A stretch of 64,000 nt of DNA, taken from the NCBI RefSeq assembly GCF_023055435.1, contig NW_025963802.1, forward strand, positions 742,355 to 806,354, in the 5' to 3' direction. The translations under genes were made by a program, and so were the position numbers. Shown here in pieces: positions 9,244 to 62,029 of this stretch; positions within the stretch are counted from its first letter, which is position 1, and the number at the start of each line of letters is the position of its first letter. Below the pieces are notes generated by a model. That model saw nothing but the letters and a program-made list of their open reading frames with translations, was not told the DNA's origin and did not search any database. This DNA is from Haliotis rufescens. Lineage: Eukaryota.

Positions 9244-9245
9244 TA

Positions 9246-24812: not shown

Positions 24813-25174
24813 CTAGTAACATAAATTGCAACATAATTTGAGTCACAAATGCCAAATATCAAATACAGTTTCCACTATGGCAAGACAAGATGTCTCAGCA
24901 CACGCCAAAATATCTCATTGCTTTTAGACCAGGGAGGATTTTCTCTCATAGGTAAAAAATTCCAAGTATAATCCTTGCAAATGAGTTTCGAAATCACATG
25001 GCTTTATTGTACCTTGGATGATTCATAATTGTTGAGCTTTGGTGTCCTGACTGGAAGATGGTAACAAAATACTAATTGTAATGTTTGGGGAAATTGGCAG
25101 CTACTCAATTTTATCAAAGTCGGTTACTTGTTATGCCCCGCATGATATGAGCCTCTGAAACATTGTTATTTCAG

Positions 25175-25284
25175 GTCTAGAACGAGCCATTCAGTCCCTA
25201 AATGGCCGGTTCTTTGGTGGGAGAATTGTGAGAGCAGAAAAGTATGATCCTGACATGTTTGAAGCTCAAGATCTGTCTGGTTGA
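25175..25284 (+). CDS. PUF60: PUF60 terminal coding exon (GLERAIQSLNGRFFGGRIVRAEKYDPDMFEAQDLSG*)
   Basis: Matches PUF60 ...[33 protein letters not shown]. Acceptor is tatttcag and the stop TGA is at 25282-25284. A candidate poly(A) signal aataaa lies at about 26326. Confidence 0.85.
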
Positions 25285-27789: not shown

Positions 27790-30700
27790 GACCATTCATC
27801 CATCTTATCAGATTACTAATCCATCCAACTGCAATAATCATCCATCTTAATACTGATCCATCCAACTGCAATAATCATCCATCTTAATACTGATCCATCC
27901 AACTGCAATAATCATCCATCTTAATACTAATCCATCCAACTGCAATAATCATCTATCTTCATACTGATCCATCCAACTGCACTAATCATCCATATTAATA
28001 CTGATCCATCCAACTGCAATAATCATCCATCTTCACACTGATCCATCCAACTGCACTAATCATCCATCTTAATACTAATCCATCCAACTGCAATAATCAT
28101 CCATCTTAATACTAATCCATCCAACTGCAATAATCATCTATCTTCATACTGATCCATCCAACTGTACTAATCATCCATCTTAATACTAATCCATCCAACT
28201 GCAATAATCATCCATCTTCACACTGATCCATCCAACTGCAATAATCATCCATCTTAATACTGATCCATCCAACTGCAATAATCATCCATCTTCACACTGA
28301 TCCATCCAACTGCACTAATCATCCATCTTAAAACTGATCCATCCAACTGCAATAATCATCCATCTTAATACTGATCCACCCAACTGCAATAATCATCAAT
28401 ATTATTACTGATCCATCAAACTGCACTAATCATCCATCTTAAAACTGATCCATCCAACTGCAATAATCATCCATCTTAATACTGATCCACCCAACTGCAA
28501 TAATCATCAATATTAATACTGATCCATCCAACTGCAATAATCATCCATCTTAATACTGATCCATCCAACTGCAATAATCATCCATCTTAATACTGATCCA
28601 TCCAACTGCAATAATCATCCATCTTAATACTGATCCATCCAACTGCAATAATCATCCATCTTAAAACTGATCCATCCAACTGCAATAATCATCCATCTTA
28701 ATACTGATTCATCCAACTGCAATAATCATCCATCTTAATACTAATCCATCCAACTGCAATAATCATCTATCTTCATACTGATCCATCCAACTGCACTAAT
28801 CATCCATCTTAATACTGATCCATCCAACTGCAATAATCATCCATCTTCACACTGATCCATCCAACTGCACTAATCATCCATCTTAATACTAATCCATCCA
28901 ACTGCAATAATCATCCATCTTAATACTAATCCATCCAACTGCAATAATCATCTATCTTCATACTGATCCATCCAACTGTACTAATCATCCATCTTAATAC
29001 TAATCCATCCAACTGCAATAATCATCCATCTTCACACTGATCCATCCAACTGCAATAATCATCCATCTTAATACTGATCCATCCAACTGCAATAATCATC
29101 CATCTTCACACTGATCCATCCAACTGCACTAATCATCCATCTTAAAACTGATCCATCCAACTGCAATAATCATCCCTCTTAATACTGATCCACCCAACTG
29201 CAATAATCATCAATATTATTACTGATCCATCAAACTGCACTAATAATCCATCTTAAAACTGATCCATCCAACTGCAATAATCATCCATCTTAATACTGAT
29301 CCACCCAACTGCAATAATCATCAATATTAATACTGATCCATCCAACTGCAATAATCATCCATCTTAATACTGATCCATCCAACTGCAATAATCATCCATC
29401 TTAATACTGATCCATCCAACTGCAATAATCATCCATCTTAAAACTGATCCATCCAACTGCAATAATCATCCATCTTAATACTGATCCATCCAACTGCAAT
29501 AATCATCCATCTTAAAACTGATCCATCCAACTGCAATAATCATCCATCTTAATACTGATCCATCCAACTGCAATAATCATCAACATTAATACTGATCCAT
29601 CCAACTGCAATAATCATCCATCTTAATACTGATCCATCCGACTGCAATAATCATCCATCTTAATACTGATCCATCCAACTGCAATAATCATCCATCTTAA
29701 TACTGATCCATCCAACTGCAATAATCATCCATCTTCATACTGATCCATCCAACTGCAATAATCATCCATCTTAAAACTGATCCATCCAACTGCAATAATC
29801 ATCCATCATAATACTGATCCAACCAACTGCAATAATCATCCATCTTAATACTAATCCATCCAACTGCAATAATCATCTATCTTCATACTGATCCATCCAA
29901 CTGTACTAATCATCCATCTTAATACTAATCCATCCAACTGCAATAATCATCCATCTTCACACTGATCCATCCAACTGCAATAATCATCCATCTTAATACT
30001 GATCCATCCAACTGCAATAATCATCCATCTTCACACTGATCCATCCAACTGCACTAATCATCCATCTTAAAACTGATCCATCCAACTGCAATAATCATCC
30101 ATCTTAATACTGATCCACCCAACTGCAATAATCATCAATATTATTACTGATCCATCAAACTGCACTAATCATCCATCTTAAAACTGATCCATCCAACTGC
30201 AATAATCATCCATCTTAATACTGATCCACCCAACTGCAATAATCATCAATATTAATACTGATCCATCCAACTGCAATAATCATCCATCTTAATACTGATC
30301 CATCCAACTGCAATAATCATCCATCTTAATACTGATCCACCCAACTGCAATAATCATCAATATTAATACTGATCCATCCAACTGCAATAATCATCCATCT
30401 TAATACTGATCCATCCAACTGCAATAATCATCCATCTTAATACTGATCCATCCAACTGCAATAATCATCCATCTTAATACTGATCCATCCAACTGCAATA
30501 ATCATCCATCTTAAAACTGATCCATCCAACTGCAATAATCATCCATCTTAATACTGATCCATCCAACTGCAATAATCATCCATCTTAATACTGATCCATC
30601 CAACTGCAATAATCATCAACATTAATACTGATCCATCCAACTGCAATAATCATCCATCTTAATACTGATCCATCCGACTGCAATAATCATCCATCTTAAT

Positions 30701-33560
30701 ACTGATCCATCCAACTGCAATAATCATCCATCTTAATACTGATCCATCCAACTGCAATAATCATCCATCTTCATACTGATCCATCCAACTGCAATAATCA
30801 TCCATCTTAAAACTGATCCATCCAACTGCAATAATCATCCATCTTAATACTGATCCAACCAACTGCAATAATCATCCATCTTAAAACTGATCCATCCAAC
30901 TGCAATAATCATCTATCTTAATACTGATCCATCCAACTGCAATAATCATCCATCTTAATACTGATCCATCCAACTGCAATAATCATCAATATTAATACTG
31001 ATCCATCCAACTGCAATAATCATCCATCTTAATACTGATCCATCCAACTGCAATAATCATCAATATTAATACTGATCCATCCAACTGCAATAATCATCCA
31101 TCTTAATACTGATCCATCCAACTGCACTAATCATCCATATTAAAACTGATCCATCCAACTGCAATAATCATCCATCTTAAAACTGATCCATCCAACTGCA
31201 ATAATCATCCATCTTAATACTGATCCATCCAACTGCAATAATCATCAATATTAATACTGATCCATCCAACTGCAATAATCATCCATCTTAATACTGATCC
31301 ATCCAACTGCAATAATCATCCATCTTAATACTGATCCATCCAACTGCAATAATCATCCATCTTAAAACTGATCCATCCAACTGCAATAATCATCCATCTT
31401 AAAACTGATCCATCCAACTGCACTAATCATCCATCTTATACTGATCCATCTAACTGCAATAATCATCCATCTTAAAACTGATCCATCCAACTGCACTAAT
31501 CATCCATCTTAAAACTGATCCATCCAACTGCACTAATCATCCATCTTCATACTGATCCATCTAACTGCAATAATCATCCATCTTAAAACTGATCCATCCA
31601 ACTGCAATAATCATCCATCTTAATACTGATCCATCCAACTGCAATAATCATCCATCTTAATACTGATCCATCCAACTGCAATAATCATCAACATTAATAC
31701 TGATCCATCCAACTGCAATAATCATTCATCTTAATACTGATCCATCCAACTGCAATAATCATCCATCTTAATACTGATCCATCCAACTGCAATAATCATC
31801 CATCTTAATACTGATCCATCCAACTGCAATAATCATCCATCTTAATACTGATCCATCCAACTGCAATAATCATCCATCTTAATACTGATCCATCCAACTG
31901 CAATAATCATCAACATTAATACTGATCCATCCAACTGCAATAATCATTCATCTTAATACTGATCCATCCAACTGCAATAATCATCCATCTTCATACTGAT
32001 CCATCTAACTGCAATAATCATCCATCTTAAAACTGATCCATCCAACTGCAATAATCATCCATCTTAATACTGATCCATCCAACTGCAATAATCATCCATC
32101 TTAATACTGATCCATCCAACTGCAATAATCATCAATATTAATACTGATCCATCCAACTGCAATAATCATCCATCTTAATACTGATCCATCCAACTGCACT
32201 AATCATCCATCTTCATACTGATCCATCCAACTGCAATAATCATTCATCTTAAAACTGATCCATCCAACTGCAATAATCATCCATCTTAATACTGATCCAT
32301 CCAACTGCAATAATCATCCATCTTAATACTGATCCATCCAACTGCAATAATCATCCATCTTAATACTGATCCATCCAACTGCAATAATCATCCATCTTAA
32401 TACTGATCCATCCAACTGCAATAATCATCCATCTTAATACTGATCCATCCAACTGCAATAATCATCCATCATAATACTGATCCATCCAACTGCACTAATC
32501 ATCCATCTTCATACTGATCCATCTAACTGCAATAATCATCCATCTTAAAACTGATCCATCCAACTGCAATAATCATCCATCTTAATACTGATCCATCCAA
32601 CTGCAATAATCATCAATATTAATACTGATCCATCCAACTGCAATAATCATCCATCTTAATACTGATCCATCCAACTGCACTAATCATCCATCTTAAAACT
32701 GATCCATCCAACTGCAATAATCATCCATCTTAAAACTGATCCATCCAACTGCAATAATCATCCATCTTAATACTGATCCATCCAACTGCAATAATCATCA
32801 ATATTAATACTGATCCATCCAACTGCAATAATCATCCATCTTAATACTGATCCATCCAACTGCAATAATCATCAATATTAATACTGATCCATCCAACTGC
32901 AATAATCATCCATCTTAAAACTGATCCATCCAACTGCAATAATCATCAACATTAATAATGATCCATCCAACTGCCATAATCATCCATCTTAATACTGATC
33001 CATCCAACTGCAATAATCATCCATCTTAAAACTGATCCATCCAACTGCAATAATCATCCATCTTAATACTGATCCATCCAACTGCAATAATCATCAATAT
33101 TAATACTGATCCATCCAACTGCAATAATCATCCATCTTAATACTGATCCATCTAACTGCAATAATCATCCATCTTAATACTGATCCATCCAACTGCAATA
33201 ATCATCCATCTTAATACTGATCCATCCAACTGCAATAATCATCCATCTTAATACTGATCCATCCAACTGCACTAATGATCCATCTTCATACTGATCCATC
33301 TAACTGCAATAATCATCCATCTTAAAACTGATCCATCCAACTGCAATAATCATCCATCTTAATACTGATCCATCCAACTGCAATAATCATCCCTCTTAAT
33401 ACTGATCCATCCAACTGCAATAATCATCCATCTTAATACTGATCCATCCAACTGCAATAATCATCCATCTTAATACTGATCCATCCAACTGCAAACATTC
33501 TCCCACCTTTTCAGAATATTGATCTATCCAACTGTAAAAGTCATCCATCTTACAAGAATT
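27790..33560. repeat. 37-bp satellite (unit tgatccatccaactgcaataatcatccatcttaatac), about 155 copies over about 5.7 kb, with higher-order periodicity
   Basis: The 37-bp period is visible directly. Unit variants (cactaatcatccatcttaaaac, caataatcatcaatattaatac, cttcacac, cttcatac, ctaatcc) recur in the same order at 28100-28440, 28900-29250 and 29850-30200. That implies a higher-order repeat of roughly 0.8-0.95 kb. Confidence 0.9.
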
Positions 33561-33769: not shown

Positions 33770-34300
33770 ACAAAACATTTCCATTTAACAACAACCATCC
33801 ATCCATTTAATAACCAAACCCCGACGTTACAACGAACATTCATCCACATTTTCCCACCTAACCACGAATACTCATCCACGTTTATCTATCTAACCACGAA
33901 TATTCATCTACATTTTCCCATCTATCCACGAATATTCATCCACATTTTTTCAATCTATCCACGAATATTCATCCATAATTTCCAATCTATCCACGAATAT
34001 TCCTCCATTTAACCACAAATATTCATCCACATTTTCCCATTCTATCCAAGAATATTCACCCACATTTTTAATCTATCCACGAATTTTCATCCATTTAACC
34101 ACGAATATTCATCCATTTAACCACGAATATTCATCCACATTTTCCAATTCTATCCACGAATATTCATCCACATTATCAATCCATCCACGAATATACATCC
34201 ATTTAACCACGAATATTCATCCACATTTACCCTCCTAACCACGAACATTTATCCCAAAACCCATCTAACCGCGAACATTCATCCACACCTTCGAACTAAA
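33770..34300. repeat. Tandem repeat of about 22-32 bp (unit ccacgaatattcatccacattttcccatctat, shorter variant ccacgaatattcatccatttaa)
   Basis: About 18 units. It shares the catccat/catccac core with the adjacent 37-bp satellite. Confidence 0.8.
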
Positions 34301-34319: not shown

Positions 34320-36660
34320 CGGTTGAATGTTCGTTGGATGTGACATTCATAGAGAATACTACTCATTCTTGTTAGATACTATTTTAACGAAACTCGTGAA
34401 ATTTCTATGGTATCTAACGAGAATGAGTGTGGTATTTTATTTATTACCCACGTTAAATATATTTTAAGTGTAAATACATAACATCTTTCGTTCGTTGAAG
34501 GACCAAACTGAAACTGATTGTCAAATCTGGTTGCACATGAATATTTATATATGCCCAAATATGGGCATTGTTGGCATTTCTATGCATACACATTAACATC
34601 ATATACGCCTGCAGTTGTGTTTGGAAACAAAACAGCACCGACGCTCAAAATCCTTTTTGGAGAATTTTTTCAACTTATGGTAAATCAAGCGCCATGTTGT
34701 CAGTACGTAGGACACCTATAAGAAAATTTGAAAAGTCACAGTAGCGCCGCGGTTTGAATATCGGACCAACAGTGGGTCACTCGCACTGCCGGGGTTCAAT
34801 TTGAGTGATCTGGTCGTGCAATCGTGAACAAACAACTCTCGATCGAAACAGTGCCACAAAATACGCTTCGAAGGGGACACGGATGGCACAACGGGTTATC
34901 CCAAGTAAGTCTAGATATCTGTCCAGATAGTTTAAATTGACTTCATTTCACCACGCTTATCCTTTTACATTAAATCAAATTGAAAGTCGCGAAAGTGGTC
35001 GAGTGCGTCACGCTCATGGGGACCCTCGATCTATTGATCGGTAGTCGGTCATTGTAAATGGATATCTAGCTCGATTATCTAATGTATGTAGCAGCTCTAT
35101 GCATAACTAATACAGAATGCAAACCGAATTTGATGCTCGTGCCCATCTTGTTTGTTTTAATAACGGCGCGCGGTTTTTTATGAATGAAAAAAGTAGTTCC
35201 GCTGTGACAGAGGTCACGGTTATCCAATCAAAACGAATAAAACGAGGTCAACCTTGTACGACACACGTGTGACGTACGGATTTAGTATCTTCACCACGTT
35301 GGTAATAAATAGAGAATACCACACTCATTCTCGTTGGATACGATTTTTACGAGTGGACTTTCTATGGTATCTGACCTCGCTTTCGCTCGATCAGATACCA
35401 TAGAAAGTCCACTCGTTTCGTAAAAATGGTATCTAACGAGAATGAGTGTGGTATTTTATTTATTGCCCACGTTAAATATATATTCAAGTGTAAATACATG
35501 ACAACTTTTGTTCGTTGACAGACCAAACTGAAACTGGTTGCAAAATCTGGTTGCGCATGAATATTGATACATGCCTAAATATGGGCATTGTTGACATTTC
35601 TATGCATACACATTAACAACATGCGCCTTCAGTTGTGTTTGCAAACATAACAGCACCGACGCTCAAGATCCTTTTGGAAGAATTTCTTCAACTTATGGTA
35701 ATTCAAGCGCCATCTGGGATGTTGTTTGTACGCAGGACACCTATAAGAAAAATTTAAAAGTCACATTAGCGCCGCGCTTTGAATATCGTACCAACAGTCG
35801 GTCACTCGCACTGCCGGTGTCCCGGCTGTGCAATCAAAATGGTTCGGTTTCCTTGATCTATCAGCTGAATTTATATCATGTCCATGCCACTTTGGAAGAG
35901 GGAATCAGAGTGTTCGACAAAGACATTCGTGTTAACTGAAAATCAACAAACTCAAGTCTGCTTGCATGTCAGTGACAGCTTCGAACGAAGGGCAAGGTCA
36001 CCACCGGAATGAGAAACGACAACCGTGATCTTCTCACAGCGTTTTACGCTAAAGATTGGGAATGTTATTGTTCACATTTGGGCTATTTTAGGCCACATAC
36101 TCAGGCACACTTCTACTGCGTTTTCGAATGATTTGTATCGGAAATGTTCACTTTGAGTGATTTGGTCGTGCAGTCGTGAACAAACAACCACTCCCGAAAC
36201 AGTGCCACAAAATACGCGTCGATGGGGACTTCATTTCCCAACGCTTATCCATTTACGTTAAATCAAATTGAAAATTGCGAAAGTGGTCGGATGCGTCACC
36301 TGTATCTTAACCACGTGGGTAATAAAGCGGATTATTACCCAAGTGGTGAAGATACAGTAGGCTAGATACTAAATTCGTACGTCACATGTGTGTCGTACAA
36401 GGTTGACCTCGTTTTATTCGTATTGACTGGATAATCGTGACCTCTGTCACACCAGAAGTTCTTTTTTTCATACATAAAAAAGGACGCGAGACGTTATTCG
36501 CTTTCTCAACGACAAAGCAGAACTAAAGGATTCTCATGAAAGCTAGATACATTTACACACACTTTATTAAACCAAACAAGATCGTCACACGCATTAAATT
36601 CGCTATGCATATTTAGTTATGCATAGAGCTACTGCAGACATTATATAATCGAGCCATGCA
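34320..36660. repeat. Composite direct and inverted duplication block: 34320-34820 is duplicated at 35400-35830, 34795-35020 at 36135-36300, and 35040-35330 is inverted at 36300-36660
   Basis: The sequence ggtatctaacgagaatgagtgtggtattttatttatt.cccacgttaaatatat...caccgacgctcaa.atcc...gtcactcgcactgccgg recurs in direct orientation. The reverse complement of gaggtcacggttatccaatcaaaacgaataaaacgaggtcaaccttgtacgacacacgtgtgacgtacggatttagtatc (35210-35290) occurs at 36365-36440. The reverse complement of the 35040-35160 segment occurs at 36545-36660. Confidence 0.7.
35300..35470. repeat. Near-perfect hairpin (about 75-bp arms, about 16-bp loop); terminal motif of a locally duplicated repeat
   Basis: The left arm ggtaataaatagagaataccacactcattctcgttggatacgatttttacgagtggactttctatggtatctga is followed by a loop cctcgctttcgctcga and then the right arm tcagataccatagaaagtccactcgtttcgtaaaaatggtatctaacgagaatgagtgtggtattttatttattgccc. 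Single-arm copies occur at 34340-34440, 49270-49345 and 51300-51375. Confidence 0.8.
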
Positions 36661-37339
36661 TATCCATGGGGGGTTGTTGGGTTGGTGGGTGTGGGTGTGG
36701 GTGTGGGTGTGGGGGGAATAATTCAGATTCCGGGAATTGAGGGGTTCACATTACAAAAAGTACTAATAAGGATCTTGTTATGAAACAAGAGTAGGTTAGA
36801 ATGATCTAGTGTTGGGGGGAAGGTGGTTGACCAATGATAGATGGAAACATGAGTAGAGCTGTGACGTAGGTACCGGTTTAAAAAGCGTCAAAAGCCCCCA
36901 AATCGAGAGAGCGGCCTGGGAGACTACATCTGGACTGGTGCTCCGCTCTCGGCTTGTTGTCACGATCTTTCGAACCAGAAACCAAACTTAGGCACCAGCA
37001 TTTCGACTGAGACTGAAGCTTTGCGGCCGAAGTCTCGTATTTAAGTGACAAATAGAGTGGGTTGACTCGCAACACAAAGTTGGAATAAAAGCTGTTTAAC
37101 GAAGATCACTCTTTGTGCTTGTTGGAGTAACTACGGTAATAGGTCCAAGGACCTCGAGTACTGACATTGTACTTCTCGCTCGTCCCGGACTGTCAGCACC
37201 AAGAACGAGGGGATTGCCGTAGTTCAGGCGAAGAGGTACACGAATTGCTACCTTCCGATTACGCAACAGTTACCCTCGATAACATCATAGAATTACCTTG
37301 GACTGATGCGGGGTACGATCTTCTCTGACGACTGCCAAA

Positions 37340-40559: not shown

Positions 40560-40765
40560 AAGTTCAATATTTAATTTATGGTTACTTAATCTTAGTTTAG
40601 AAACATAAATGTTTCGAAAGTAGTTAAACTTACATCAATATTTTAGAATGAGAATATTTTCTGGACACACACACACACACACCTGTCATCTGCCGCAGAA
40701 GAGCTTGTGGTCATTAATCGGCTTTAATTTATGGTTACTTAATCTTAGTTTAGAAACATAATTGT

Positions 40766-40809
<44 letters not shown>

Positions 40810-40810
40810 C

Positions 40811-40852
<42 letters not shown>

Positions 40853-40893
40853 GTCATCTGCTACAGAAGAGCTTGTGGTCATTAATCAGCTTG
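40560..40893. repeat. Tandem duplication of about 167 bp, each copy ending in a (CA)n or (GCAC)n(CA)n microsatellite
   Basis: The segment ttaatttatggttacttaatcttagtttagaaacataa ... (ca)n cctgtcatctgc..cagaagagcttgtggtcattaatc occurs twice (40560-40725 and 40727-40893). Confidence 0.7.
40766..40850. repeat. (GCAC)n followed by (CA)n compound microsatellite
   Basis: Direct reading. Confidence 0.95.
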
Positions 40894-40904
40894 ACACCGC
40901 AGTG

Positions 40905-41065
40905 TAGCCGGTGTCCCGGTATAAACTCTCCCCCGTACAAATTCTCCCCCCGGAGATTTTACACGGTACAGATTCTCCCCCGGCGAATCTGTTCTGAAAT
41001 AAAATCTCCCCCGGGCGGATATATTTCGCGCCCCCCTCAGTATAAAGTCTCCCCCCTGATTATTC
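40905..41065 (-). mobile_element. G-rich/TATA repeat family, copy 1 (inverted relative to the other three)
   Basis: Its reverse complement carries the sub-repeats gggggagattttatttc, ggggagaatttgtacg and ccgggggagaatctgtaccg, together with the ccggtataaa core. Confidence 0.5.
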
Positions 41066-42284
41066 GGTTTGTTGCAATGTCTTTAAGTACTATATTCTTT
41101 AAATAATTATCTTTAATGTAAGGAGGGTTACTTTAAAAAATAGATTATGAAATATGGTCATAATGAATTGATATTTCAGAATATTTTATTTGGTAACTGT
41201 ACCTTCCATCCTAAAATAATTATAAGACATAATCATACCAAACAAAGGATGGGAGACATGAGTCTCTACATAACTTGTTGTTTCTAATACAGTTGTTGTT
41301 GTCTGTATACATTTTTTTAATATACCAGTTTGAGTCTACATGTGAACACAATCGATGGTTGAAATGTTAGTCTAAGAACAAAACATGAACTAATTCTAAA
41401 GAACTCTGATGTATAAAGTTACCTTCATCTTTGATTGACTGATGTATTTTCAATCTTTATTCGGCACTGAAGAGGCCACAGGCCTATAGTACGAAGCATT
41501 AAGTTTATGAATAAACTGTTATAAAGTATTCATAAAGTATCAGGGGTCATTTCAACTTGCAAAATGATTGACATGGTCCTTTATAGAGCGAGGATTGGGC
41601 TGTTTTCTCACCCGATTGACTGACATACAACATTCACATGGTTTAGAATGGTACAATGAATGGTAAAGCATGCAAATTACTCTAATACGCGATATTTCAT
41701 AAGAAAATATCATATCTCCGTTAAAACATAAAACCAATATTTATGAGTCTACATATTGATATAAGACTTTATCACTGTATCCAATTCCAACATTTTAGAT
41801 ATAAACTTTCGGACAGTTCAGTTCAAAATTCTTCAACCTTTAATACATCACAGGGATTTGTAGCTAGACGACGGGAATCTACAGTCTTGACTGTGTGTGT
41901 GTGTTTTTTATGAGAATGTTTCTCACCGACCTTAGCGTGTAGGGGTGTGATGTCCTGGGCAGGAAATGACAGTATTTTGACTACTCGTCTTTCATTAATT
42001 AACGTTATGGGCATCCCTAATTAACATTTACTAATTCATGTTAAACCAACACAGGATGTTTTCTGGAAGTGGACAATCGCGAATGTAATAGGGCTGACAC
42101 GACATGTGTTAATAACTGTCCTAGAACTTCTTAAGTTACTAAACATTCTTTATATCTAACGACTAATATTATATCCACCTATATACCACTTTATTGTCTC
42201 ATATTGCGGTAGTAAAGAAAACACAGTGCTCAAAGTGAAGCCCATTTCACTCCACATTCTCAACATCGTCTCTATCAGAAGTGT

Positions 42285-42432
42285 TTGGCAACTATTGAAC
42301 TGCATGGCAAGTATTTATAAAACGACCGGGGGAGGAAATATTCTGGGGGGGAGATTTTATTTCGTAGGGTGGGGGAGAATTTATTTCGAGAGGGGCGGAA
42401 ATGTACCGGTATAAATGACACCGGCCGCATGG
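42285..42432 (+). mobile_element. G-rich/TATA repeat family, copy 2
   Basis: Reads gaactgcatggcaagtatttataaaacgaccgggggaggaaatattctgggggggagattttatttcgtagggtgggggagaatttatttcgagaggggcggaaatgtaccggtataaatgacaccgg. Confidence 0.6.
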
Positions 42433-43083
42433 AACTCTGGGTTGGAGAGTGTAGTTGTCGCAGCGCGCATTGATCCGGGAACCAGACCGGAAGTGACAGT
42501 TTGGACCGTCGCTTATATCATTTCAAAAGGAGAGTTATTTCCCTTTGGAACAAAAAGATTGCCCAATAGTCAGTGTTGATAAGTCAATAATGATCGGTTA
42601 ATCATCACACGAACAGTGATGATGGCGTTGAAATATGAGCACACACAGTCGTGCTGTGACTCATTTGATTGAATTTGTTGTTATTTATTGTCAAAAAAGA
42701 AAGACAATATTTGCAATTGCAATAAGCTCCCAATTTATGCATCACACAATATGTTATTGCAAATTTCCATTTCATCTACCCTGAGCCTTTTTCCAATATT
42801 AAGTGTTCAGCTCTTACAAGGAACGTCACAGAAAGTAGTATAGGTAATGGTGATTCTGCCGCAACCCCACTGGAGCCAGATTTATATACCTATACTGCTA
42901 CTACAGGGGGATTTTTTTTATGTGTAAACGCTGATGCGATTCAACGATCGTCATGAGATTAAGTTAAATTGACTCTAGCTCACCACTACCTTGAGTCAAT
43001 CAATGATACCATAGAGGGAATTTTTAGCACAAAAACGATGATGAGACTAAACTAAATTGTAATGAAAATATTCTCTATTATTT

Positions 43084-43347
43084 TTACTCATCCATATACC
43101 ATAATTTTTTAACAAAGTGATATTCAACATTTTTACTAAGTTCTTCGTTCATTTTACTAGGAGACCAGACTATATACTCTTCTTGGTAATTGGAAAGAAA
43201 CAATTGATGACCGTATTTGGTTGGTCTGACATCATTGATATAATATATACCTTGTAGTAATTCTCTCCATTTGATAATTTTGTCCCTGAGCATAAATGCT
43301 TCGATAGCTTTTTCGAGTTCTTCCTTTGTTGGTTTGTGATTCTCCAT
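43084..43347 (-). CDS. Hypothetical intronless 87-aa ORF (MENHKPTKEELEKAIEAFMLRDKIIKWRELLQGIYYINDVRPTKYGHQLFLSNYQEEYIVWSPSKMNEELSKNVEYHFVKKLWYMDE)
   Basis: Complete ATG-to-stop ORF in unique, non-repetitive sequence with a non-low-complexity composition. I do not recognise any homology. It may be a chance ORF in AT-rich DNA. Confidence 0.15.
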   Translation of the reverse strand: MENHKPTKEELEKAIEAFMLRDKIIKWRELLQGIYYINDVRPTKYGHQLFLSNYQEEYIVWSPSKMNEELSKNVEYHFVKKLWYMDE

Positions 43348-43692
43348 TATTATATATTTATGTATGCATTCGTTTAAATGAATGTATGATTTGTTATGCG
43401 GTGCGATCCAATGATAGGAAACAATCTATTTTTAATCTCCAACCAGTTCTTTGGTTTTGGCACGGAATAATTGACGCGCTTGTGTCCCCTGTTCTATTTA
43501 CTTTTTTTCTCGTCTTCGCTAATACCACTGATCTTACGATATTAAGATCGAATCTCCTGCTTTATTGTGTTGTATTTGGTGAGTTCTGACAACACTGAAC
43601 GAAAATCCTCCTCGGATATCTTACAATCAGCCAGTGCTGTTGAAATATGATCCTCAATGCTGTTCAACTTTGCTTCGGCGAGTATCGGGGGC

Positions 43693-43957
43693 ACGGGTGG
43701 CCCAGTCGTCTAAGGCAGAGTTGCGTCCCTTGGGCACGCCAGAAACCTATGATTGTGGGTTCGAATCCCGCTTCGCCCCGATTATGTTTCTAGGTTTGTC
43801 AGCACCATACCCGTGCACGTGGGTTTCACCGAAGTGCTAAACGTCTGAGACCTGCATCACTTCGGGCTTTCCTCCCACATTAAGCTGACACGCCGTGATG
43901 TAACTGGAATACTGTTAAAAGCGGCGTTAAACCCAACTCACTCACTCATTCGGCGAG
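43693..43957 (+). mobile_element. SINE-C copy (full length)
   Basis: Reads ggtggcccagtcgtctaaggcagagttgcgtcccttgggcacgccagaaacctatgattgtgggttcgaatcccgcttcgcc...cacgccgtgatgtaactggaatactgttaaaagcggcgttaaacccaactcactcactca. Confidence 0.8.
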
Positions 43958-45689
43958 TATCCGAATATTATCATGTTTTAATGCTTTCTTTGGCAACTTA
44001 CGAGAAATAAATTTTATCGCTATTCCTGCCAGTCCAGAGACTCCAGCGGCTATTTCCATGTCAAGTACGATAGGCGTGGCGATTATAGTTGATAGTAAAC
44101 CAACACCGGCTACACCGAGTCCCATGCCAGCCTTTACAAGCATACGTTATCAATGTACCTCGAGTACAAGCAAGTAATATCCATGTACTGGTACAGCATA
44201 GCATTTTATGAATATGAAATCACAATAGCACATTTTCTTTTTAAAACAGGCAAATTGTGCGTTGATAATGCTTTAATCTCTACATTAACAATCCCGGAAG
44301 AAAACTAACCCCTTTATTGCACCACTGTGCCCAAGCTTGTTCTATTATGCCAACAGTTCAAACTCGAGACCTAGCAACATATCCGATTACACTTGGCCCA
44401 GGCTGACCCTAGCGGGATTCCGTCAGTTCTCAATGCAATACTCACGTGGTAGTCTGTCTCCTAGGCCTGGTCCTGCGCCATGACTGTGGAATTTATATTT
44501 TTTAGGTATTCTGTTTTACTAAATTCCTAGGCAAGTCTAGATCATACTAACCAAGTCTAGTTTAGTTGATTCCATAACAGCAGAAGGAGAAAGGTTCTTC
44601 CGAATAAAACAAATATATTTTAAAGAAATGTTTTCATTGACTATGTGTTACTCTATCTGTCCCCAGATCCTAGAGAATATATTTGAAACGGACTCCAAGT
44701 AAAGAATGATTTGACAAGTCTAGATTGCCTAAGTTCTGGTCCTGAAATCAAGCATCGTTCTGGGATCCATTTGTATTCTATTGAGTAGATTTATAATTTT
44801 AACTACGTGAAATTGTATTTCTGGGATGTTGGTTGATTTTAGATGTGGGTATTTATAGATAACAAAAAAATATGAAATATATATTATTTATGATGTAGCT
44901 AAGGTATGTGCACGTTTAAAAACTGTAGTTTGTAGTCAACCAAAGAAGATATTCAACACTTTAGATTGTATATTGTTTTGAAATGTCTCGCCTCATGAAC
45001 ACGTTCCTTATTTCAATATTGTATTCAATTCCACCCATGACTGTACACAACATTTATATATTTACATGTATACGACGGCTACATGGGCAAGTATAAAGGT
45101 AAACACAAACGTGTGTTTGTTTAACATTTTTGTGTGTTGAAACACTGTTATATTAAAGGGAAATATAACCATTTAGTCTGTTCGGGTAACCAATTCTAGC
45201 TATTATTTCCTGAATAAAATATTATCTACTTCAGGCATACACATATTGTTTTGTGTCATGTGACACCAGATGTTGTTATCAACCAATACTCATAACGTAA
45301 AAAAACATAGAAATGTGAAACATCAATGCTAGAGAATAACCAAGTTCGATTTTCCAACGAAAAAAATTCCTTTTGGCGTGAACGTTGACAATAGCGGTAC
45401 AAATATATTAATGGATCACTGAAAATCAGTGATGACGCAATTGTTTGCAAAAGTCTGTTGCCTCCGATGAATAGATGAAGTTATTCCGAAACAGTAAGCC
45501 CTTAGAAGTCTTGTTTGCCAGCCGGGACCATGTCAGTATATCAGGTGTGAAATGCATTTACACGTTGAACGCATTGACAGAGAGTATTAGTTATCTTGAA
45601 CGGTTGGTGAAACCGCGCAAATCGAAACAGTTCATTTATGGTGTAGTATTTCCATTGGCAAATCAAAACAGTTCATTTATGGTGTAGTA

Positions 45690-45940
45690 TTGTCCACATA
45701 TTGATATAAGACTTTATCACTGTCTTCAATTCCAAAATGTTAGATTTAAACTTTCGGACCCAACACAAGCCAAACACAAGTATTTATAAAAATCCCTACG
45801 AGATTTTATTTCGTAGGGTGGGGGAGAGTTTATTTCGAGAGGGGCTGAACTGTACCGGTATAAATTCGCCGGGAGGGGGGGTGGGTGTGGGTGTGGGGGT
45901 GGGGTATTCTTGGGGCGAATATATTTCGTGACACCGGAAC
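45690..45940 (+). mobile_element. G-rich/TATA repeat family, copy 3, with a shared 70-bp upstream flank also found at 41755-41825
   Basis: Reads ...caagtatttataaaaatccctacgagattttatttcgtagggtgggggagagtttatttcgagaggggctgaactgtaccggtataaattcgccgggagggggggtgggtgtgggtgtgggggtggggtattcttggggcgaatatatttcgtgacaccgg. The flank ttgatataagactttatcactgt..caattccaa.at.ttagat.taaactttcggac is shared with 41755-41825. Confidence 0.6.
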
Positions 45941-46759
45941 TACTGATGTAACTGATTTCAGAGATCTTATTAATCCTCGCAAACATTCGGTTTTAACACT
46001 AACTACGTAAAAACTGTCAACATAACCACGCCGTTATACTCTGATTAAAGATCTTAAATATATTCCTTAATACAGGCTACCATTTGAAAATGGTATCAGT
46101 GTAATACCAGGGGCTAGAATATCATGGTGCAACCAGGTTTCTGTTAAACATACAACATCATAACTATCTAATTCAGCACTGATTAAATCTACTTTAAAAT
46201 CTACTAAGACTGCGTACGTTTACATGTATAATCTTTATAAGCAAAGTAACCCAAAATATAGATAATGTGTATCATCTTCCCGAAATGATTAGCATGTAGA
46301 ATAGATTCAAAAACACCTGTATTGAACATCAACCGGCATCGTCAAAGCAAAGTGTACATGTAATTGTTACAATGGGGCTGGCGGTGAATATTAATGAAGA
46401 ACATCTTGTTAAAAAGACACACCGAAACTGATTTGCATAACTGATGACCACAACATATTGCAAAATATCAAAATAGTAAAAATGATACAGTTTAACCTCA
46501 CACTGAAGAGAAAACAAGAACGACACAGAAAAGTAAAATAGTACGTCTTATAGAACTGAGATAAAGTAATCTGAGAAGGGATTCATACGTTATATACAAC
46601 TTAAAAATATAATATTATGAAAAACGAAAGGAAAAGTGGGCCCCCCTCCACCCCCCACCACACACCCCACACAAGTAACTAAATGTATAATTCAGAAAAA
46701 ATAAAGGAGATAAAAAAAAAATGAATAAAAAAACACATAAACAAATTAACATTAAAACT

Positions 46760-46940
46760 ATTGGCAACTGCATGGCAAGTATTTATAAAACGACCGGGGG
46801 AGGAAATATTCTGGGGGGAGATTTTATTTCGTAGGGTTGGGGAGAGTTTATTTCGAGAGGGGCGGAACTGTACCGGTATAAATTTGCCGGGGGGAGATTT
46901 TATTCTGGGGGCGAATATATTTCGTGACACCGGCAAGAGG
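46760..46940 (+). mobile_element. G-rich/TATA repeat family, copy 4
   Basis: Reads ctgcatggcaagtatttataaaacgaccgggggaggaaatattctggggggagattttatttcgtagggttggggagagtttatttcgagaggggcggaactgtaccggtataaatttgccggggggagattttattctgggggcgaatatatttcgtgacaccgg. Confidence 0.6.
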
Positions 46941-47769: not shown

Positions 47770-48215
47770 GCAGGTTTCTTGTCGAGGAAATAATGCCGCC
47801 GAGATGGGTTCTTGTCGAGGAAATAATGCCGACGAGATTGGTTCTTGTCGAGGAAATAATGCCGTCGAGATGGGTTCTTGTCGAGGAAATAATGCCGACG
47901 AGATGGGTTCTTGTCGCGGAAATAATGCCGACGAGATGGGTTCTTGTCGAGGAAATAATGCCGACGAGATGGGTTCTTGTCGAGGAAATATTGCCAACGA
48001 GATGGTTTCTTGTCGAGGAAACGATGCCGACGAGATGGTTCCTTGTCAAAGAAATGGATTGGTGATTCACTTAAAAGGTGGACATAAGCTGACGAGATGG
48101 AGTCTTGTCGAGGAAATAATGCCGACGAGATGGTTTCTTGTCAAAGAAATGGATTCGTGATTCATTTGAAAGGTGGACATAAGCTGACGAGATGGAGTCT
48201 TGTCGAGGAGATGGA
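47770..48215. repeat. 33-bp satellite (unit cgagatgggttcttgtcgaggaaataatgccga, about 10 copies, plus two longer variant units of about 100 bp at 48040-48215)
   Basis: A period of 33 bp equals 11 codons. This produces the repetitive ORFs on both strands (MPTRWVLVEEI repeats and their reverse). Confidence 0.85.
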
Positions 48216-52656: not shown

Positions 52657-52833
52657 GAGTGAGTGAGTGAGTTTGGTTTTACGCCGCTTTTAGCAATATT
52701 CCAGCAATATCACGGCGGGGGACACCAGAAATGGGCTTCACACATTGTACCCATGTCGGGATTCGAACCCGGGTCTTCGGCGTGACGAGCGAACGCTTTA
52801 ACCACTAGGCTACCCGACCGCCCCTCGTCATTT
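52657..52833 (-). mobile_element. SINE-B copy
   Basis: Same family, about 200 bp downstream of the previous copy. It ends ...gcgaacgctttaaccactaggctacccgaccgcccc. Confidence 0.8.
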
Positions 52834-54975: not shown

Positions 54976-55901
54976 TTGGACCGTCTCCTGCATCGATACA
55001 ATGCTACACAGACCACAGCTGACCTTGCTCGGAGCGGTCGTCCTAGGGTCACCACACCTCGACAAGATCGGCAGATTACCCGTCAACACCAGCGACATCT
55101 GTTCCTAAATGCAAGTGAAAGTGCTCGACAGACCATAGGAACAAATAATCGACACATTAGCCGTGACACTGTGATCCGACGTCTCCGTTCCAACAACCTC
55201 AGATGTCGCCGACCAGCACGTCGTCCTGTTCTCCAACCACAGCATCGACAAGCACGACTTCAGTGGGCACAGGGTCATCGCAATTGGCGTCATCGTGAGT
55301 AGAGGCGTGTCATCTTCTCTGATGAAAGTCGCTTTTGTGTCTCCCATGCAGACGGAAGAGTCAGAATTTGGCGGCGTCGAGGTGATCGTTTCGCTGACAG
55401 AAACGTTGTGGAAAGGGATCCATAGGGTGGACCTAGCGTCATGATATGGGCAGGGATTGGACTTAATTCGAGACTTGGACCCATGTGCTTTCTGAATGTT
55501 GGTTAAGGTCGGGGACACGGCGTCACTGCTCAGCGGTATATCGACCAAGTGATCAGACCCCACGTTGTTCCATTTTTTGCACAACATCAACAACACATTT
55601 TCAAGCAGGACAACGCTCGTCCCCATGTTGCCAGAGCTACCATGGCCTTTCTGCAACAACACAACATCTACCGTGGCCAGCCTTCAGCCCTGATCTGAAC
55701 CCAATCGAACACTTGTGGGATGAGGTTCAAAGGCGTCTGCACAATGTGCGCCCAGTCCCTACAACTGCCGATGAACTACGCACAGCTGCTCTGGATGTGT
55801 GCAGGAGGATCCATAGGGCCTTCACAAATCGTCTGATCCACTCAATGTACAGGAGATGTGTGGCAGTGATCAATGCTAATGGTGGTCACACCAGGTATTG
55901 A
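54976..55901 (+). pseudogene. Tc1-like (DD34E) transposase pseudogene with internal stops and at least one frameshift
   Basis: Reading 54976 onward gives ...ARSGRPRVTTPRQDRQITRQH... (HTH), then ...RLQWAQGHRNW..., then VIFSDESRF (first D), FKQDNARPH (second D), and the hallmark AFSPDLNPIEHLWDEV (third acidic residue). In-frame stops follow RHRE, RDP and NVG, and there is a frameshift between the DNARPH and PDLNPIE blocks. An upstream in-frame TAA shows the N-terminus is lost too. Confidence 0.8.
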
Positions 55902-58140: not shown

Positions 58141-58184
58141 ATCTCAAATGGGTTTCTCACACACAGGTGTGTAAGAATATCTGA

Positions 58185-60185
58185 TCTCAGGTGGAATCAT
58201 GATGGCAAGCTGTGACTATCTGATCTCAGGTGGAATCATGATGGCAAGCTGTGACTATCTGATCTCAGGTGGAATCATGATGACAAGCTGTGACTATCTG
58301 ATGTCAGGTGGAATCATGATGACAAGCTGTGACTATCTGATCTCAGGTGGAATCATGATAACAAGCTGTGACTATCTGATCTCTGGTGGATTCATGATGG
58401 CAAGCTGTGACTATCTGATCTCTGGTGGAATCATGATGACAAGCTGATGACTATCTGATCTCAGGTGGAATCATGATGACAAGCTGTGAATATCTGATCT
58501 CTCGTGAAATCATGATGACAAGCTGTGAATATCTGATCTCTCGTGAAATCATGATGACAAGCTGTGACTATCTGATCTCTCGTGAAATCATGATGACAAG
58601 CTGTGAATATCTGATCTCTCGTGAAATCATGATAACAAGCTGTGACTATCTGATCTCTGGTGGATTCATGATGGCAAGCTGTGACTATCTGATCTCTGGT
58701 GGATTCATGATGACAAGCTGATGACTATCTGATCTCAGGTGGAATCATGATGACAAGCTGTGACTATCTGATCTCAGGTGGAATCATGATAACAAGCTGT
58801 GACTATCTGATCTCAGGTGGAATCATGATGACAAGCTGTGACTATCTGATCTCTGGTGGATTCATGATGACAAGCTGTGACTATCTGATCTCTGGTGGAA
58901 TCATGATGACAAGCTGTGACTATCTGATCTCTGGTGGAATCATGATGACAAGCTGTGACTATCTGATCTCAGGTGGAATCATGATGACAAGCTGTGACTA
59001 TCTGATCTCAGGTGGAATCATGATAACAAGCTGTGACTATCTGATCTCAGGTGGAATCATGATGACAAGCTGTGACTATCTGATCTCAGGTGGATTCATG
59101 ATGGCAAGCTGTGACTATCTGATCTCTGGTGGAATCATGATGACAAGCTGTGACTATCTGATCTCAGGTGGAATCATGATGACAAGCTGTGACTTTCTGA
59201 TCTCAGGTGGAATCCTGATGACAAGCTGTGACTATCTGATCTCTCGTGAAATCATGATGACAAGCTGTGACTATCTGATCTCTCGTGAAATCATGATGAC
59301 AAGCTGTGAATATCTGATCTCTCGTGAAATCATGATAACAAGCTGTGACTATCTGATCTCTGGTGGATTCATGATGGCAAGCTGTGACTATCTGATCTCT
59401 GGTGGATTCATGATGACAAGCTGATGACTATCTGATCTCAGGTGGAATCATGATGACAAGCTGTGACTATCTGATCTCAGGTGGAATCATGATAACAAGC
59501 TGTGACTATCTGATCTCAGGTGGAATCATGATGACAAGCTGTGACTATCTGATCTCTGGTGGATTCATGATGGCAAGCTGTGACTATCTGATCTCTGGTG
59601 GAATCATGATGACAAGCTGTGACTATCTGATCTCTGGTGGAATCATGATGACAAGCTGTGACTATCTGATCTCAGGTGGAATCATGATGACAAGCTGTGA
59701 CTATCTGATCTCAGGTGGAATCATGATAACAAGCTGTGACTATCTGATCTCAGGTGGAATCATGATGACAAGCTGTGACTATCTGATCTCAGGTGGATTC
59801 ATGATGGCAAGCTGTGACTATCTGATCTCTGGTGGAATCATGATGACAAGCTGTGACTATCTGATCTCAGGTGGAATCATGATGACAAGCTGTGACTTTC
59901 TGATCTCAGGTGGAATCCTGATGACAAGCTGTGACTATCTGATCTCAGGTGGAATCATGATGACAAGGTAATGAATATCTGATCTCTCGTGAAATCATGA
60001 TGACAAGCTGTGACTATCTGATCTCTCGTGAATTCATGATGACAAGCTGTGACTATCTGATCTCTGGTGAAATCATGATGACAAGCTGTGACTATCTGAT
60101 CTCTCGTGAAATCATGATGACAAGCTGTGACTATCTGATCTCTCGTGAAATCATGATGACAAGCTGATCCCTTGTGGAATCATGA
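58185..60185. repeat. 39-bp satellite (unit ctgatctcaggtggaatcatgatgacaagctgtgactat, about 51 copies) with higher-order punctuation
   Basis: A period of 39 bp equals 13 codons (MMTSCDYLISGGI). The variant subunits are tctcaggtggaatc, tctctggtggattc and tctctcgtgaaatc. A 1-nt-longer unit (caagctgatgactat) recurs at 58447, 58721, 59424 and about 59971, spaced 274 bp (seven units plus one) or 703 bp (18 units plus one). These break the artifactual ORFs into 82-, 82-, 225- and 173-aa pieces. Confidence 0.9.
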
Positions 60186-60469: not shown

Positions 60470-60722
60470 CGTGATTCGCTGTGCAGAGTTGCGTCCCTTG
60501 GGCACGCCAGAAACCTAATAGTATGATTGTGGGTTCGAATCCCGGTTCGCCCCGATTATGTTTCTAGGTTTGTCAGCACCATACCCGTGCTCGTGGGTTT
60601 CACCGAAGTGGTAAACGTATGAGACCTGCATCACTTCGGGCTTTCCTCCCACATTAAGCTGACACGCCGCGATATAACTGGAATATTTTTAAAAGCGGCG
60701 TTTAACCCAACTCACTCACTCG
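60470..60722 (+). mobile_element. SINE-C copy, 5'-truncated
   Basis: Reads ...gcagagttgcgtcccttgggcacgccagaaacctaatagtatgattgtgggttcgaatcccggttcgcc...cgccgcgatataactggaatatttttaaaagcggcgtttaacccaactcactcactc. Confidence 0.75.
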
Positions 60723-62029
60723 AATAATATCATGTCTATGGAATAGCTATTATCAAGTCAATGGTTTTATTCCGCGCATGCATATATTTATTACCCACCT
60801 CAAAGGCAACTGGGGTTGTATACTCCCCGTTGAGCTGAGAATGAAATTCAAGTGTATACTGATCAATTGACCAGGGCAATAATACTGTAGTGCCACGAGA
60901 ATTCACTGAATGCAATGAGGACGTTATATATGGACTTTTAGAAAACGTAATGGATAGTACACCTATCATATTTAAGCCTTTAAACATTGACATGTTTTGA
61001 ATGTCATGGTGTATCATGCACTCTGATATCTTTAATCCTTTTTTTGATGAATGTTCTTATAAATAACTGATACTTGTTGTTACTATTTTATTTTATATGA
61101 TTGCAATACAACATATGTCCACCCCTTGCTGGTCACAACTAATACCGCCTTTGTTGTTGCTCACGGCACATCATTAGATAGTAATGCAGAGCTCCAGATA
61201 AGCTGCGTATCTGCGTGAAATACGCATAAAAACTGCAGAAATACGCAGTAAAATAAAATCCAAGCGTATCAAATACGCAACGAATCTTACAGATACGCTA
61301 CAAAAATAAAACTTGTGCGTATCATCAAAATAATGTTAAGTTACCCTGCGTATTCGATTAGCCAATCAGCAACTTATTTTGAAATTATAAACGGGCATTC
61401 CGTCAAACTTGCCAAACTCCACGATGACAGTTACATCATGATCATTTGCAATCACACTTTCTTGTGGAAGTATCGTGGTATTTTTGAGTCCTATAAAGCT
61501 CTCGAACCCACACGACACCAGTTTGCAAGAACCAGATGAATAGTGTTTTTAAATATTTAACTTAAATACCCACATGTGTAAAAACAAGTGGGTAACAGAA
61601 ATTTGAATACCCAGATAGAATTACTGATACCCAATGATTTTAAAATGCATGGGTAAAATACCCACAACACCAAAGGCTTATCTGGAGCTCTGGTAATGAG
61701 AGAGATATTCTTACGGTTTGGTTATGCCTGTTTAATCCTGTCATTGTTGGTATCCTGCCTTTGAAACATATACATCTACATCCATGTCAATATTGTTGAT
61801 GGTATATATTTCAGCTGAACTGAAATGGCGCGAAGCTGCACACTAGGCCTCGTGGGATACGGCTGAAACAAAACATGTATATTTTATTTGCCTACATCTG
61901 CGGATTCGTGTGCCGACAATGTCATTGTGGAATTGTTGTGAGTGATTTGTTTTGAATTGGATGTGATATAACGAGACGTAACATCAACTGTATATGCATA
62001 TTCCGTTTTCTGTACTATTCCATTCTGTA

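Follow-up and report, generated by a model that had tools for sequence, protein, structure and literature searches.

The locus analysed here raises the question of what a cluster of four G-rich, non-coding repeats of 140–180 bp each, lying inside 6 kb of repeat-rich animal DNA, might be. The window, which is the whole 64-kb stretch of DNA that was analysed, is of animal origin and contains a PUF60 gene besides SINEs and Tc1/mariner relics. The sequence-only reading had described an unclassified family built from sub-repeats, and this family proved to be genuine and non-coding. As outlined below, the copies look like leftover ends of non-autonomous mobile elements rather than promoters. Tentatively, and with somewhat less than an even chance of being right, we regard them as decayed ends of a non-autonomous transposon, which carry a subterminal array of putative protein-binding motifs and were amplified locally.

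BLAST and a profile built from the four copies recovered all of them at the sites where they had been noticed, three in direct and one in inverted orientation as had been described (Table 1). No further copy was unveiled by either method in the 64-kb window, the family being confined to 6 kb. A possible fifth copy, suggested by the 13-mer CCGGGACACCGGC at 35809–35821, was rejected for want of BLAST or profile support. Furthermore, exact and degenerate pattern scans of viral, metagenome and prokaryote contig collections gave no match to the family, and exact look-ups of two ORFs of the window in public assemblies yielded no entry.

Table 1 Coordinates of the repeat copies and of associated features in the window.
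Feature	Position	Strand	Evidence and remarks
Copy 1	40908–41091	-	profile match 41091–40901, E 1.6e-40; oldest, inverted
Copy 2	42290–42424	+	profile E 9e-34; BLAST 42290–42416 vs 46756–46883, 95.3%
Copy 3	45775–45937	+	profile E 4.8e-41
Copy 4	46756–46933	+	profile E 1.6e-52; most complete
Canonical G4 motif (G3+N1-7 x4)	45871–45891	+	regex scan; in copy 3, within its microsatellite-like GGGTGT tract
68-bp segment	41747–41814	+	91% identical to 45692–45759; about 480 bp upstream of copy 2
Partner of 41747–41814	45692–45759	+	immediately upstream of copy 3
7-bp inverted repeat GACACCG / CGGTGTC, 9-nt loop	40893–40915	.	outer end of copy 1; hairpin in DNA fold
Maverick/Polinton-associated gene fragment	43542–44143	-	residues ~65–171 of a 181-aa protein; between copies 2 and 3

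Copy 4 contains six sub-repeats besides the leader AACTATTGGCAACTGCATGGCAAGTATTTATAAAACGACC, the core CCGGTATAAAT (46873–46883) and the terminal GACACCGG (46926–46933). In copy 2 the leader, four sub-repeats and the core CCGGTATAAAT are followed directly by GACACCGG, and the copy corresponds to copy 4 without 42 nt (46884–46925). Copy 3 exhibits a shortened leader, a 5'-truncated first sub-repeat and one sub-repeat replaced by (GGGTGT)n, with GACACCGG again at the end. For copy 1 six sub-repeats were identified, together with the terminal GACACCGG at 40915–40908 in element orientation and a short leader-like ATTGCAAC on the inner side. A terminal gacaccgg had been announced for each copy, and GACACCGG is indeed present in 4/4; likewise, the leader said to be common to copies 2 and 4 is identical at 53 of 53 positions (42298–42350 versus 46766–46818). 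Both of these copies start at the same 5' boundary AACTATTG..., with unrelated flanks on either side. The identity among copies 2–4 amounts to 91–96% (95.6% for copy 2 versus copy 4), that of copy 1 to copies 2–4 is 76–78%. The alignment of the inverted copy 1 to copy 4 runs inward from the terminus (BLAST 40907–41035 versus 46934–46796; 68.8% over 144 columns, E 1.7e-12), and its terminal inverted identity to the other copies is perfect over 8–9 bp and about 70% thereafter.

The family is characterised above all by its G-rich sub-repeat. With up to three mismatches, the motif GGGGAGANTTTATTTCG gave 12 matches in the 64-kb window versus 0.39 expected, a 30-fold enrichment that confirms the sub-repeat and was reached by 0 of 100 shuffles, and all 12 matches lie inside the four copies. 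The sub-repeat of about 17 bp consists of a run of four to six G, (A/C)G(A/G), 1–3 nt and T(T/A)TAT(T/A)(T/C)CG; its iterations are 17–30 bp apart and the array closes with the fixed GACACCGG(C). Whereas three or four sub-repeats per copy had been claimed, 4–6 were counted, an iterated motif near the terminus as in hAT-like ends.

The (GGGTGT)n tract reported for copy 3 was found again and holds a canonical G-quadruplex motif (Table 1). The proneness to G-quadruplex formation that had been proposed is therefore upheld by the regex scan for copy 3 and not for the other copies, which contain no canonical motif and whose G-runs are 13–25 nt apart; four G3+ runs with loops of at most 7 nt are a property of copy 3 alone and not of the family. 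A similar GTGGGT microsatellite is located at 36685–36713. Protein coding was rejected: Pfam gave no match in six reading frames, nothing scored as a protein homologue when the 126-aa ORF spanning copy 4 was used as query, and copy 2 is frameshifted versus copies 3 and 4. Structured RNA was rejected as well, Rfam yielding no relevant match. In the DNA fold copy 4 reached z = -1.7 and copy 1 z = -3.7, the latter because of its internal palindrome and end hairpin.

A perfect TATA core had been ascribed to every copy. The core CCGGTATAAAT is exact in copies 2–4 only; in copy 1 the homologous position reads ACCGTGTAAAAT, and the match CCGGTATAAAC (40916, + strand), which does not lie at the homologous position, is the reverse complement of the last sub-repeat (GGGGAGAGTTTATACCGG). 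Taken as an 11-mer, the core was matched five times versus 1.0 expected, a number reached by 1 of 100 shuffles, and on its own it is not enriched. If the copies were functional cis-regulatory cassettes, their G-rich upstream elements and TATA boxes would drive local transcripts. This agrees with two TATA-like boxes, TATTTATAAAA and GGTATAAAT, which are conserved in copies 2–4, and with a CpG observed/expected ratio of 1.1–1.3 in the copies versus 0.69 in the window. However, both boxes are degenerate in copy 1, neither an RNA family nor an ORF follows any copy, and the closest gene relic lies on the opposite strand, 1.6 kb from copy 3. Moreover, no sequence common to the regions downstream of the copies was found, which argues against a common transcript, and such cassettes appear extremely unlikely. 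The suggested clustered promoter module is weak because the core of copy 1 is degenerate and nothing downstream is conserved; a conserved TATA position combined with a conserved transcribed sequence, the mark of a core promoter, is not seen in the family. The TATA boxes could also represent the U3 promoter of a TRIM-like non-autonomous LTR retrotransposon with copies 2–4 as its terminal direct repeats (small or solo LTRs). These three copies are directly oriented, copies 3 and 4 are separated by a TRIM-sized 1018 bp, copy 2 continues with ...GGCCGCA followed by TGG and copy 4 with ...GGCA, corresponding to a CA end, and a purine-rich tract is found 30–50 bp upstream of copy 4. Short direct repeats with TATA boxes at such a spacing resemble TRIMs and solo LTRs, and TRIMs are known in bivalves (PMC6934838). 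Yet only the CA end and the TGG after copy 2 fit an LTR element: the shared 5' boundary has no TG, a 4–6 bp target duplication is absent for every pair, the intervals between the copies are not similar to each other, the putative PBS is tRNA-like over about 12 nt only with no TGG after copy 3, the purine tract (PPT) does not adjoin copy 4, relics of RT, IN or gag are absent, and copy 1 is inverted. The retrotransposon origin is thus considered quite improbable.

Terminal inverted repeats were not found within any one unit, the 5' leader AACTATTGGCAAC... and the 3' ...GTGACACCGG not being complementary, and a search for target-site duplications gave no direct repeat of at least 4 bp around any unit, with offsets of up to +/-6 bp allowed, and no duplication for any pairing or offset. 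A minisatellite-bearing MITE, one of the original proposals, is consequently not supported. Rolling-circle elements have neither TIRs nor target duplications, and in molluscs they carry microsatellites and short tandem arrays. The copies might be the end module of such an element (Helitron or Helentron/HINE), in keeping with the missing TIR and TSD. Furthermore, a 7-bp stem-loop closes copy 1, which lies directly next to two tandem units of ~160 bp with (CA)n/(CACG)n microsatellites (40570–40892), an arrangement reminiscent of HINEs with their subTIR, IR, microsatellite and tandem repeats (PMC7492417, PMC4067079). The hairpin, adjoining the last tandem unit (40723–40892), and the tandem neighbour are however restricted to copy 1, Helitron termini (5' TC, 3' CTRR) are absent from the shared boundaries, and the CTGA beside copy 1 is part of the adjacent tandem unit, as its recurrence in unit 1, where the element is missing, shows; the Helitron end of the sequence-only reading is therefore not supported. 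Helitrons also have a hairpin about 10 nt ahead of their 3' end and insert between A and T. Helentrons and HINEs lack a TSD and are recognised by a pair of subterminal inverted repeats of 11–13 bp, by a palindrome at the 3' end and by a T-rich (TT) target (PMC4067079, PMC7492417). The lack of a TSD applies to all copies, the palindrome, microsatellite and tandem units to copy 1 only, and neither a subTIR pair nor T-rich flanks were found at any copy. Like mollusc and insect HINE/DINE-1 elements the family is non-coding and without target duplication, and copy 1 has a short palindrome at its end beside the microsatellite and tandem units (PMC7492417, PMC4067079); it differs from these elements by lacking the subTIR pair, the TT target and a palindrome at the 3' end of each copy, and no equivalent of the G-rich array is known from described HINEs. 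A rolling-circle end is therefore rated as distinctly unlikely. A non-mobile low-complexity module may instead have multiplied on the spot, through segmental duplication or replication slippage, with gene conversion homogenising copies 2–4 and with flanks eroded by indels and transposon insertions. Four copies within 6 kb and none in the other 58 kb, the lack of target-site duplications and the 68-bp segment common to the copy-2 and copy-3 loci (Table 1) are consistent with such a process. Nevertheless, the similarity of copies 2 and 4, which are 95.6% identical, ends abruptly at the same two boundaries between unrelated flanks, one copy is inverted, and random segmental copying would not be expected to give 4/4 copies a discrete common terminus, so that we consider local duplication unlikely, although it retains some weight.

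According to the transposon-end interpretation, the four copies would all be non-coding, decayed remnants of a single mobile-element family; most likely they would represent the ends of a non-autonomous transposon of the cut-and-paste type. As copy 1 faces copies 2–4, the cluster may be read as one old left end (copy 1) and three younger right ends (copies 2–4). This pattern could have arisen if elements inserted locally more than once, transposed abortively or underwent internal deletion. Copy 2 with its 42-nt deletion, copy 3 with its GGGTGT expansion and the 68-bp flank common to the loci of these two copies would agree with such a history. Support comes from the motif enrichment restricted to four loci, from the same 3' terminus in every copy and the same 5' boundary of copies 2 and 4 between unrelated flanks, from the alignment of the inverted copy 1 to copy 4, which proceeds inward from the terminus, from indel variants typical of non-autonomous elements, and from the lack of any Pfam, protein-homologue or Rfam match. 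In addition, a graveyard of transposons (SINEs, a Maverick gene relic, Tc1/mariner relics) surrounds the copies, and the identity among copies 2–4 is comparable to that of the SINE copies in the window (87–94%). Counting against transposon ends are the missing target-site duplication and transposase relic, the short perfect part of the terminal inverted identity of copy 1, and the single 6-kb cluster, which purely local duplication could produce too. The family itself, its motif array, the common terminus, the orientations, the lack of a coding or RNA signal and the confinement to 6 kb of the 64 kb are shown, whereas mobility, local hopping and the binding of a protein to the motif are inferred.

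In hAT, CACTA, pogo-related MITE and foldback elements, too, the subterminal regions are arrays of an iterated motif; the transposase binds this motif and needs the array in cis. Transposase binding to iterated subterminal motifs has been documented for Herves (PMC3143072) and for Emigrant/Lemi1 (PMC1636448). With cut-and-paste DNA transposons and their MITEs (hAT elements such as Herves or Ac, CACTA En/Spm, Emigrant/Lemi1) the family shares a 150–200 bp non-coding, motif-filled region beside a fixed terminus, copies that vary by internal deletions and ends that face each other (PMC3143072, PMC1636448). Unlike in these elements, no target-site duplication, clear 10–25 bp TIR or autonomous partner was found here, and the family motif measures about 17 bp versus 6–8 bp for typical hAT motifs. 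CAG-type ends can be read 8–15 nt past GACACCGG. An element extending to such a ...CTG end (hAT-like CAGNG) was rejected, since the similarity of copies 2 and 4 drops at GACACCGGC, falling from 95% to about 50%; hAT-like YARNG termini with an 8-bp target duplication were not identified, there being neither an 8-bp duplication nor a partner end. The GGAACT 6-mer shared in the flanks is expected by chance (estimate about 0.6 for four 25-nt flanks). Foldback-type ends (Drosophila FB, Galileo) consist of tandem sub-repeats whose number varies between copies, the paired ends being imperfectly symmetrical, and the present ends are alike in their tandem sub-repeats of variable number. Foldback ends are however long and paired around a short middle, whereas three ends of the same orientation and one opposite end occur here, and this single opposite end (copy 1) is 22–24% diverged, unlike foldback pairs.

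The unit might also be a portable binding-site array for one sequence-specific DNA-binding protein with two embedded TATA boxes, spreading locally without the hallmarks of a known class (TIR, TSD, Helitron ends). We consider this very unlikely; if true, the unit would be either a regulatory cassette that is mobile or a non-autonomous element of a kind not yet described, and the retained CpGs would point to methylation protection. Such a repeat family is ordinary for a repeat-rich animal genome and has little significance beyond repeat annotation, many comparable "Unknown" families being contained in consensus repeat libraries of poorly studied invertebrate genomes. The defined boundaries, motif and terminus would allow masking and perhaps linking to an autonomous partner. 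If the motif array served as a platform that binds a transposase or host factor and has promoter activity, the family would offer a modest case of regulatory sequence carried by a transposon.

With respect to the neighbourhood, copy 3 had been reported to share its upstream flank with about 41755–41825, which was corroborated by the 68-bp segment (Table 1) and suggests that some copies were part of a longer unit with internal deletions. A link of the family to the Maverick relic, as its TIR or promoter, found no support: the motif is absent from three comparison loci (L001, L002 and L003), among them a complete Maverick with ~1-kb TIRs (L001), a comparison that is a weak test because these loci come from unrelated species. 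No other Maverick gene was found in the 64-kb window. The Maverick gene fragment itself is split by a SINE (43687–43951), which is accompanied by the 13-bp target duplication TTCGGCGAGTATC.

Four copies of a short non-coding G-rich repeat within 6 kb, three direct and one inverted, had been described in the sequence-only reading, and they proved to be real in the motif scan, BLAST and profile search. Scanning the window for GGGGAGANTTTATTTCG with up to 3 mismatches gave 12 matches, all within the four copy loci, versus 0.39 expected; 0 of 100 shuffles gave as many as 12. Self-BLAST of 40.4–47.5 kb against the entire window returned the four copies and no others, and an nhmmer profile built from them retrieved the same four loci alone (E 1.6e-52 to 9e-34). 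Pairwise identity was 95.6% for copies 2 and 4 and 90.8% both for 2 and 3 and for 3 and 4; copy 1 shares 76–78% with each other copy. Each copy terminates in GACACCGG, in three cases with a C after it; of the six occurrences of this 8-mer in the window, four are these copy ends. The leader common to copies 2 and 4 (53 of 53 positions identical) and the flank of copy 3 (68 bp, 45692–45759, matching 41747–41814 at 91%) were likewise corroborated. The family is genuine, unclassified and ordinary; its earlier outline was good, with the TATA core and the G-quadruplex over-read. Pattern scans for further copies in viral, JGI-metagenome and prokaryotic collections found none, and exact-protein look-ups of two window ORFs yielded no match. 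At 35809–35821 (−) lies a 13-mer, CCGGGACACCGGC, identical to the copy 1 terminus, with GATATAAATTCAGC ~50 nt upstream; this could be what remains of a very old fifth copy, which neither BLAST nor the profile detected.

Coordinates of the G-rich repeat copies and other features of the window
Feature	Position	Strand	Remarks
Copy 1	40908–41091	−	motif scan, BLAST, profile
Copy 2	42290–42424	+	motif scan, BLAST, profile
Copy 3	45775–45937	+	motif scan, BLAST, profile
Copy 4	46756–46933	+	motif scan, BLAST, profile
Two ~160-bp tandem units	40570–40892		each with (CA)n or (CACG)n(CA)n microsatellite; adjoin copy 1 hairpin end
Maverick/Polinton-associated gene fragment	43542–44143 (44143–43946 + 43694–43542)	−	...KHDNIRILAEAKLNSIEDHIS...
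Intact 87-aa ORF	43084–43347	−	MENHKPTKEELEKAIEAF...; downstream of Maverick relic, same strand
PUF60 (poly-U binding splicing factor)	16637–25281 (about 16.6–25.3 kb)	+	multi-exon gene
SINE, tRNA-derived	2660–2941, 43687–43951, 52657–52819, 60483–60721 and others		conserved tail ...CCGTGATATTGCTGGAATATTGCTAAAAGCGGCGTAAAACC(ACTC)n
Tc1/mariner transposase relics	55485–55901, 9032–9451	+, −	motifs ...FSPDLNPIEHLWDE... and ...PPYSPDL...
Minisatellite, 5.7 kb	27814–33494		~154 copies of 37-bp unit (TACTGATCCATCCAACTGCAATAATCATCCATCTTAA), 93% identity
Tandem array, 2 kb	58178–60166		~51 copies of 39-bp unit, 94% identity
Tandem array	7847–8584		30/59/148-bp periods
Tandem array	47776–48209		33/95-bp periods
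Tandem array	62029–62845		29-bp period

Copy 4, the most complete of the four, consists of a ~40-bp leader (AACTATTGGCAACTGCATGGCAAGTATTTATAAAACGACC), six units at a spacing of 17–30 bp (GGGGGAGGAAATATTCT, GGGGGGAGATTTTATTTCG, GGGGAGAGTTTATTTCG, GGGGCGGAACTGTACCGG(TATAAATTTGCC), GGGGGGAGATTTTATTCT, GGGGGCGAATATATTTCG) and the terminal sequence TGACACCGG. The order of units is retained in copy 1, which also has six and can be aligned with copy 4 over ~140 bp from the terminus inward. Copy 2 lacks 42 nt, corresponding to 46884–46925 of copy 4, and in copy 3 the leader is shortened and one unit replaced by a (GGGTGT)n tract. The GC skew of the G-rich strand ranges from +0.27 to +0.49, and CpG observed/expected is 1.1–1.3 in the copies versus 0.69 in the window, at only 7–12 CpGs per copy. 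Just inside copy 1, a 120-bp AT-rich imperfect palindrome (41103–41223; 71% over 129 columns) is possibly a small insertion of the foldback or MITE-like type.

Copies 2–4 carry the supposed TATA core, CCGGTATAAAT, without mismatch, but the homologous position of copy 1 reads ACCGTGTAAAAT; CCGGTATAAAC at 40916 of copy 1 lies on the strand opposite to the element and is just the final sub-repeat of this copy in reverse complement. Taken alone, the 11-mer is not significantly enriched in the window. What follows the four copies downstream is unrelated sequence in each case, so a promoter of a duplicated transcript was rejected, and we consider it extremely improbable that the copies form a functional promoter cassette. 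A canonical G-quadruplex motif is present in copy 3 (45871–45891) and missing from copies 1, 2 and 4, because their G-runs are too widely spaced. The folding z-score of copy 4 was unremarkable (−1.7); that of copy 1 (−3.7) is due to two features missing from the other copies, a palindrome inside it and a hairpin at its end. Rfam gave nothing at gathering thresholds and only a CA-repeat artefact at E ≤1, ruling out a known RNA family. An ORF of 126 aa spans copy 4; a protein-coding repeat is ruled out by the frameshift in copy 2, the lack of a homologue among 5.8 billion proteins and the lack of a Pfam match in six frames of 40.4–47.5 kb.

With respect to known element classes, a MITE as defined was rejected: a unit lacks terminal inverted repeats, and no target-site duplication was found, whether units were taken singly or copy 1 was combined with copy 2, 3 or 4 (all offsets up to 6 bp). 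A canonical Helitron was rejected as well, neither a 5' TC nor a 3' CTRR being present. The CTGA at the side of copy 1 is part of the abutting ~160-bp tandem unit, since AAGCYGATTAATG is found again in unit 1, where the element is missing. The end hairpin of copy 1 adjoins the microsatellite-bearing tandem units and recalls the layout of Helentron-derived HINE elements, as published for those of oysters (PMC7492417) and for DINE-1 (PMC4067079). It occurs at this one copy only, and a Helentron/HINE end appears quite improbable. Copy 2 continues ...CA|TGG; by the usual criteria an LTR or TRIM was rejected (no TG start, target-site duplication, adjacent PPT or internal similarity among inter-copy intervals), and a TRIM or solo LTR appears quite improbable.

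Tentatively, we favor decayed ends of a non-autonomous transposon carrying a subterminal array of one putative protein-binding motif. The organization (fixed terminus, several iterations of one short motif within 150–200 bp of this terminus, indel variants between copies, facing ends) matches the subterminal regions of hAT, CACTA, pogo-related MITE and foldback elements, in which the iterated subterminal motif is the transposase binding site. Such binding has been reported for Herves (PMC3143072) and Emigrant/Lemi1 (PMC1636448). One old inverted end and three younger direct ends in 6 kb would then reflect local reinsertion or abortive events. Since the loci of copies 2 and 3 have a 68-bp segment in common, the units may be longer ones that underwent internal deletions. 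We infer both that the family is mobile and that its motif serves for binding. The missing target-site duplications and autonomous partner count against the transposon-end reading; that the copies arose purely by local duplication with gene conversion seems rather unlikely.

Between copies 2 and 3, the Maverick/Polinton gene relic is split by a SINE (43687–43951) with a 13-bp target duplication, TTCGGCGAGTATC; removal of the SINE restores the reading frame. Homologues of the relic are 55–59% identical, and one resides in a 17.9-kb contig (L001), which was read as a Maverick/Polinton because of a Pfam match of called genes to DJR-like_dom (capsid), faint matches to rve (integrase), Pox_A32 (ATPase) and DNA_pol_B_2, and ~1-kb terminal inverted repeats. 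In Maverick elements (L001), relic homologues adjoin ATPase, DJR capsid, pPolB and integrase genes. The window holds no other Maverick gene, and none of the three Maverick-bearing loci that were fetched (L001–L003) contains the G-rich motif. We therefore regard the relic as an indication of a transposon graveyard and not as a partner of the G-rich repeat. At the nucleotide level these loci have no similarity to the window, and the 87-aa ORF has neither a Pfam match nor similarity to neighboring genes in them.

The window is repeat-rich animal nuclear DNA with (CA)n and other microsatellites and three long minisatellite arrays. Its PUF60 is 82% identical to the closest relative in the protein collection (molluscs ~77%), and the G-rich copies lie at least 15 kb downstream in non-coding sequence. 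The SINE copies share 87–94% identity, one of them being the sole Rfam tRNA match of the window. The 27814–33494 minisatellite displays an extreme C-over-G skew (−0.6 to −0.7) and is followed by related arrays (22–108 bp) at 33832–34287, and one frame of the 58178–60166 array is open, resulting in a spurious repetitive ORF.
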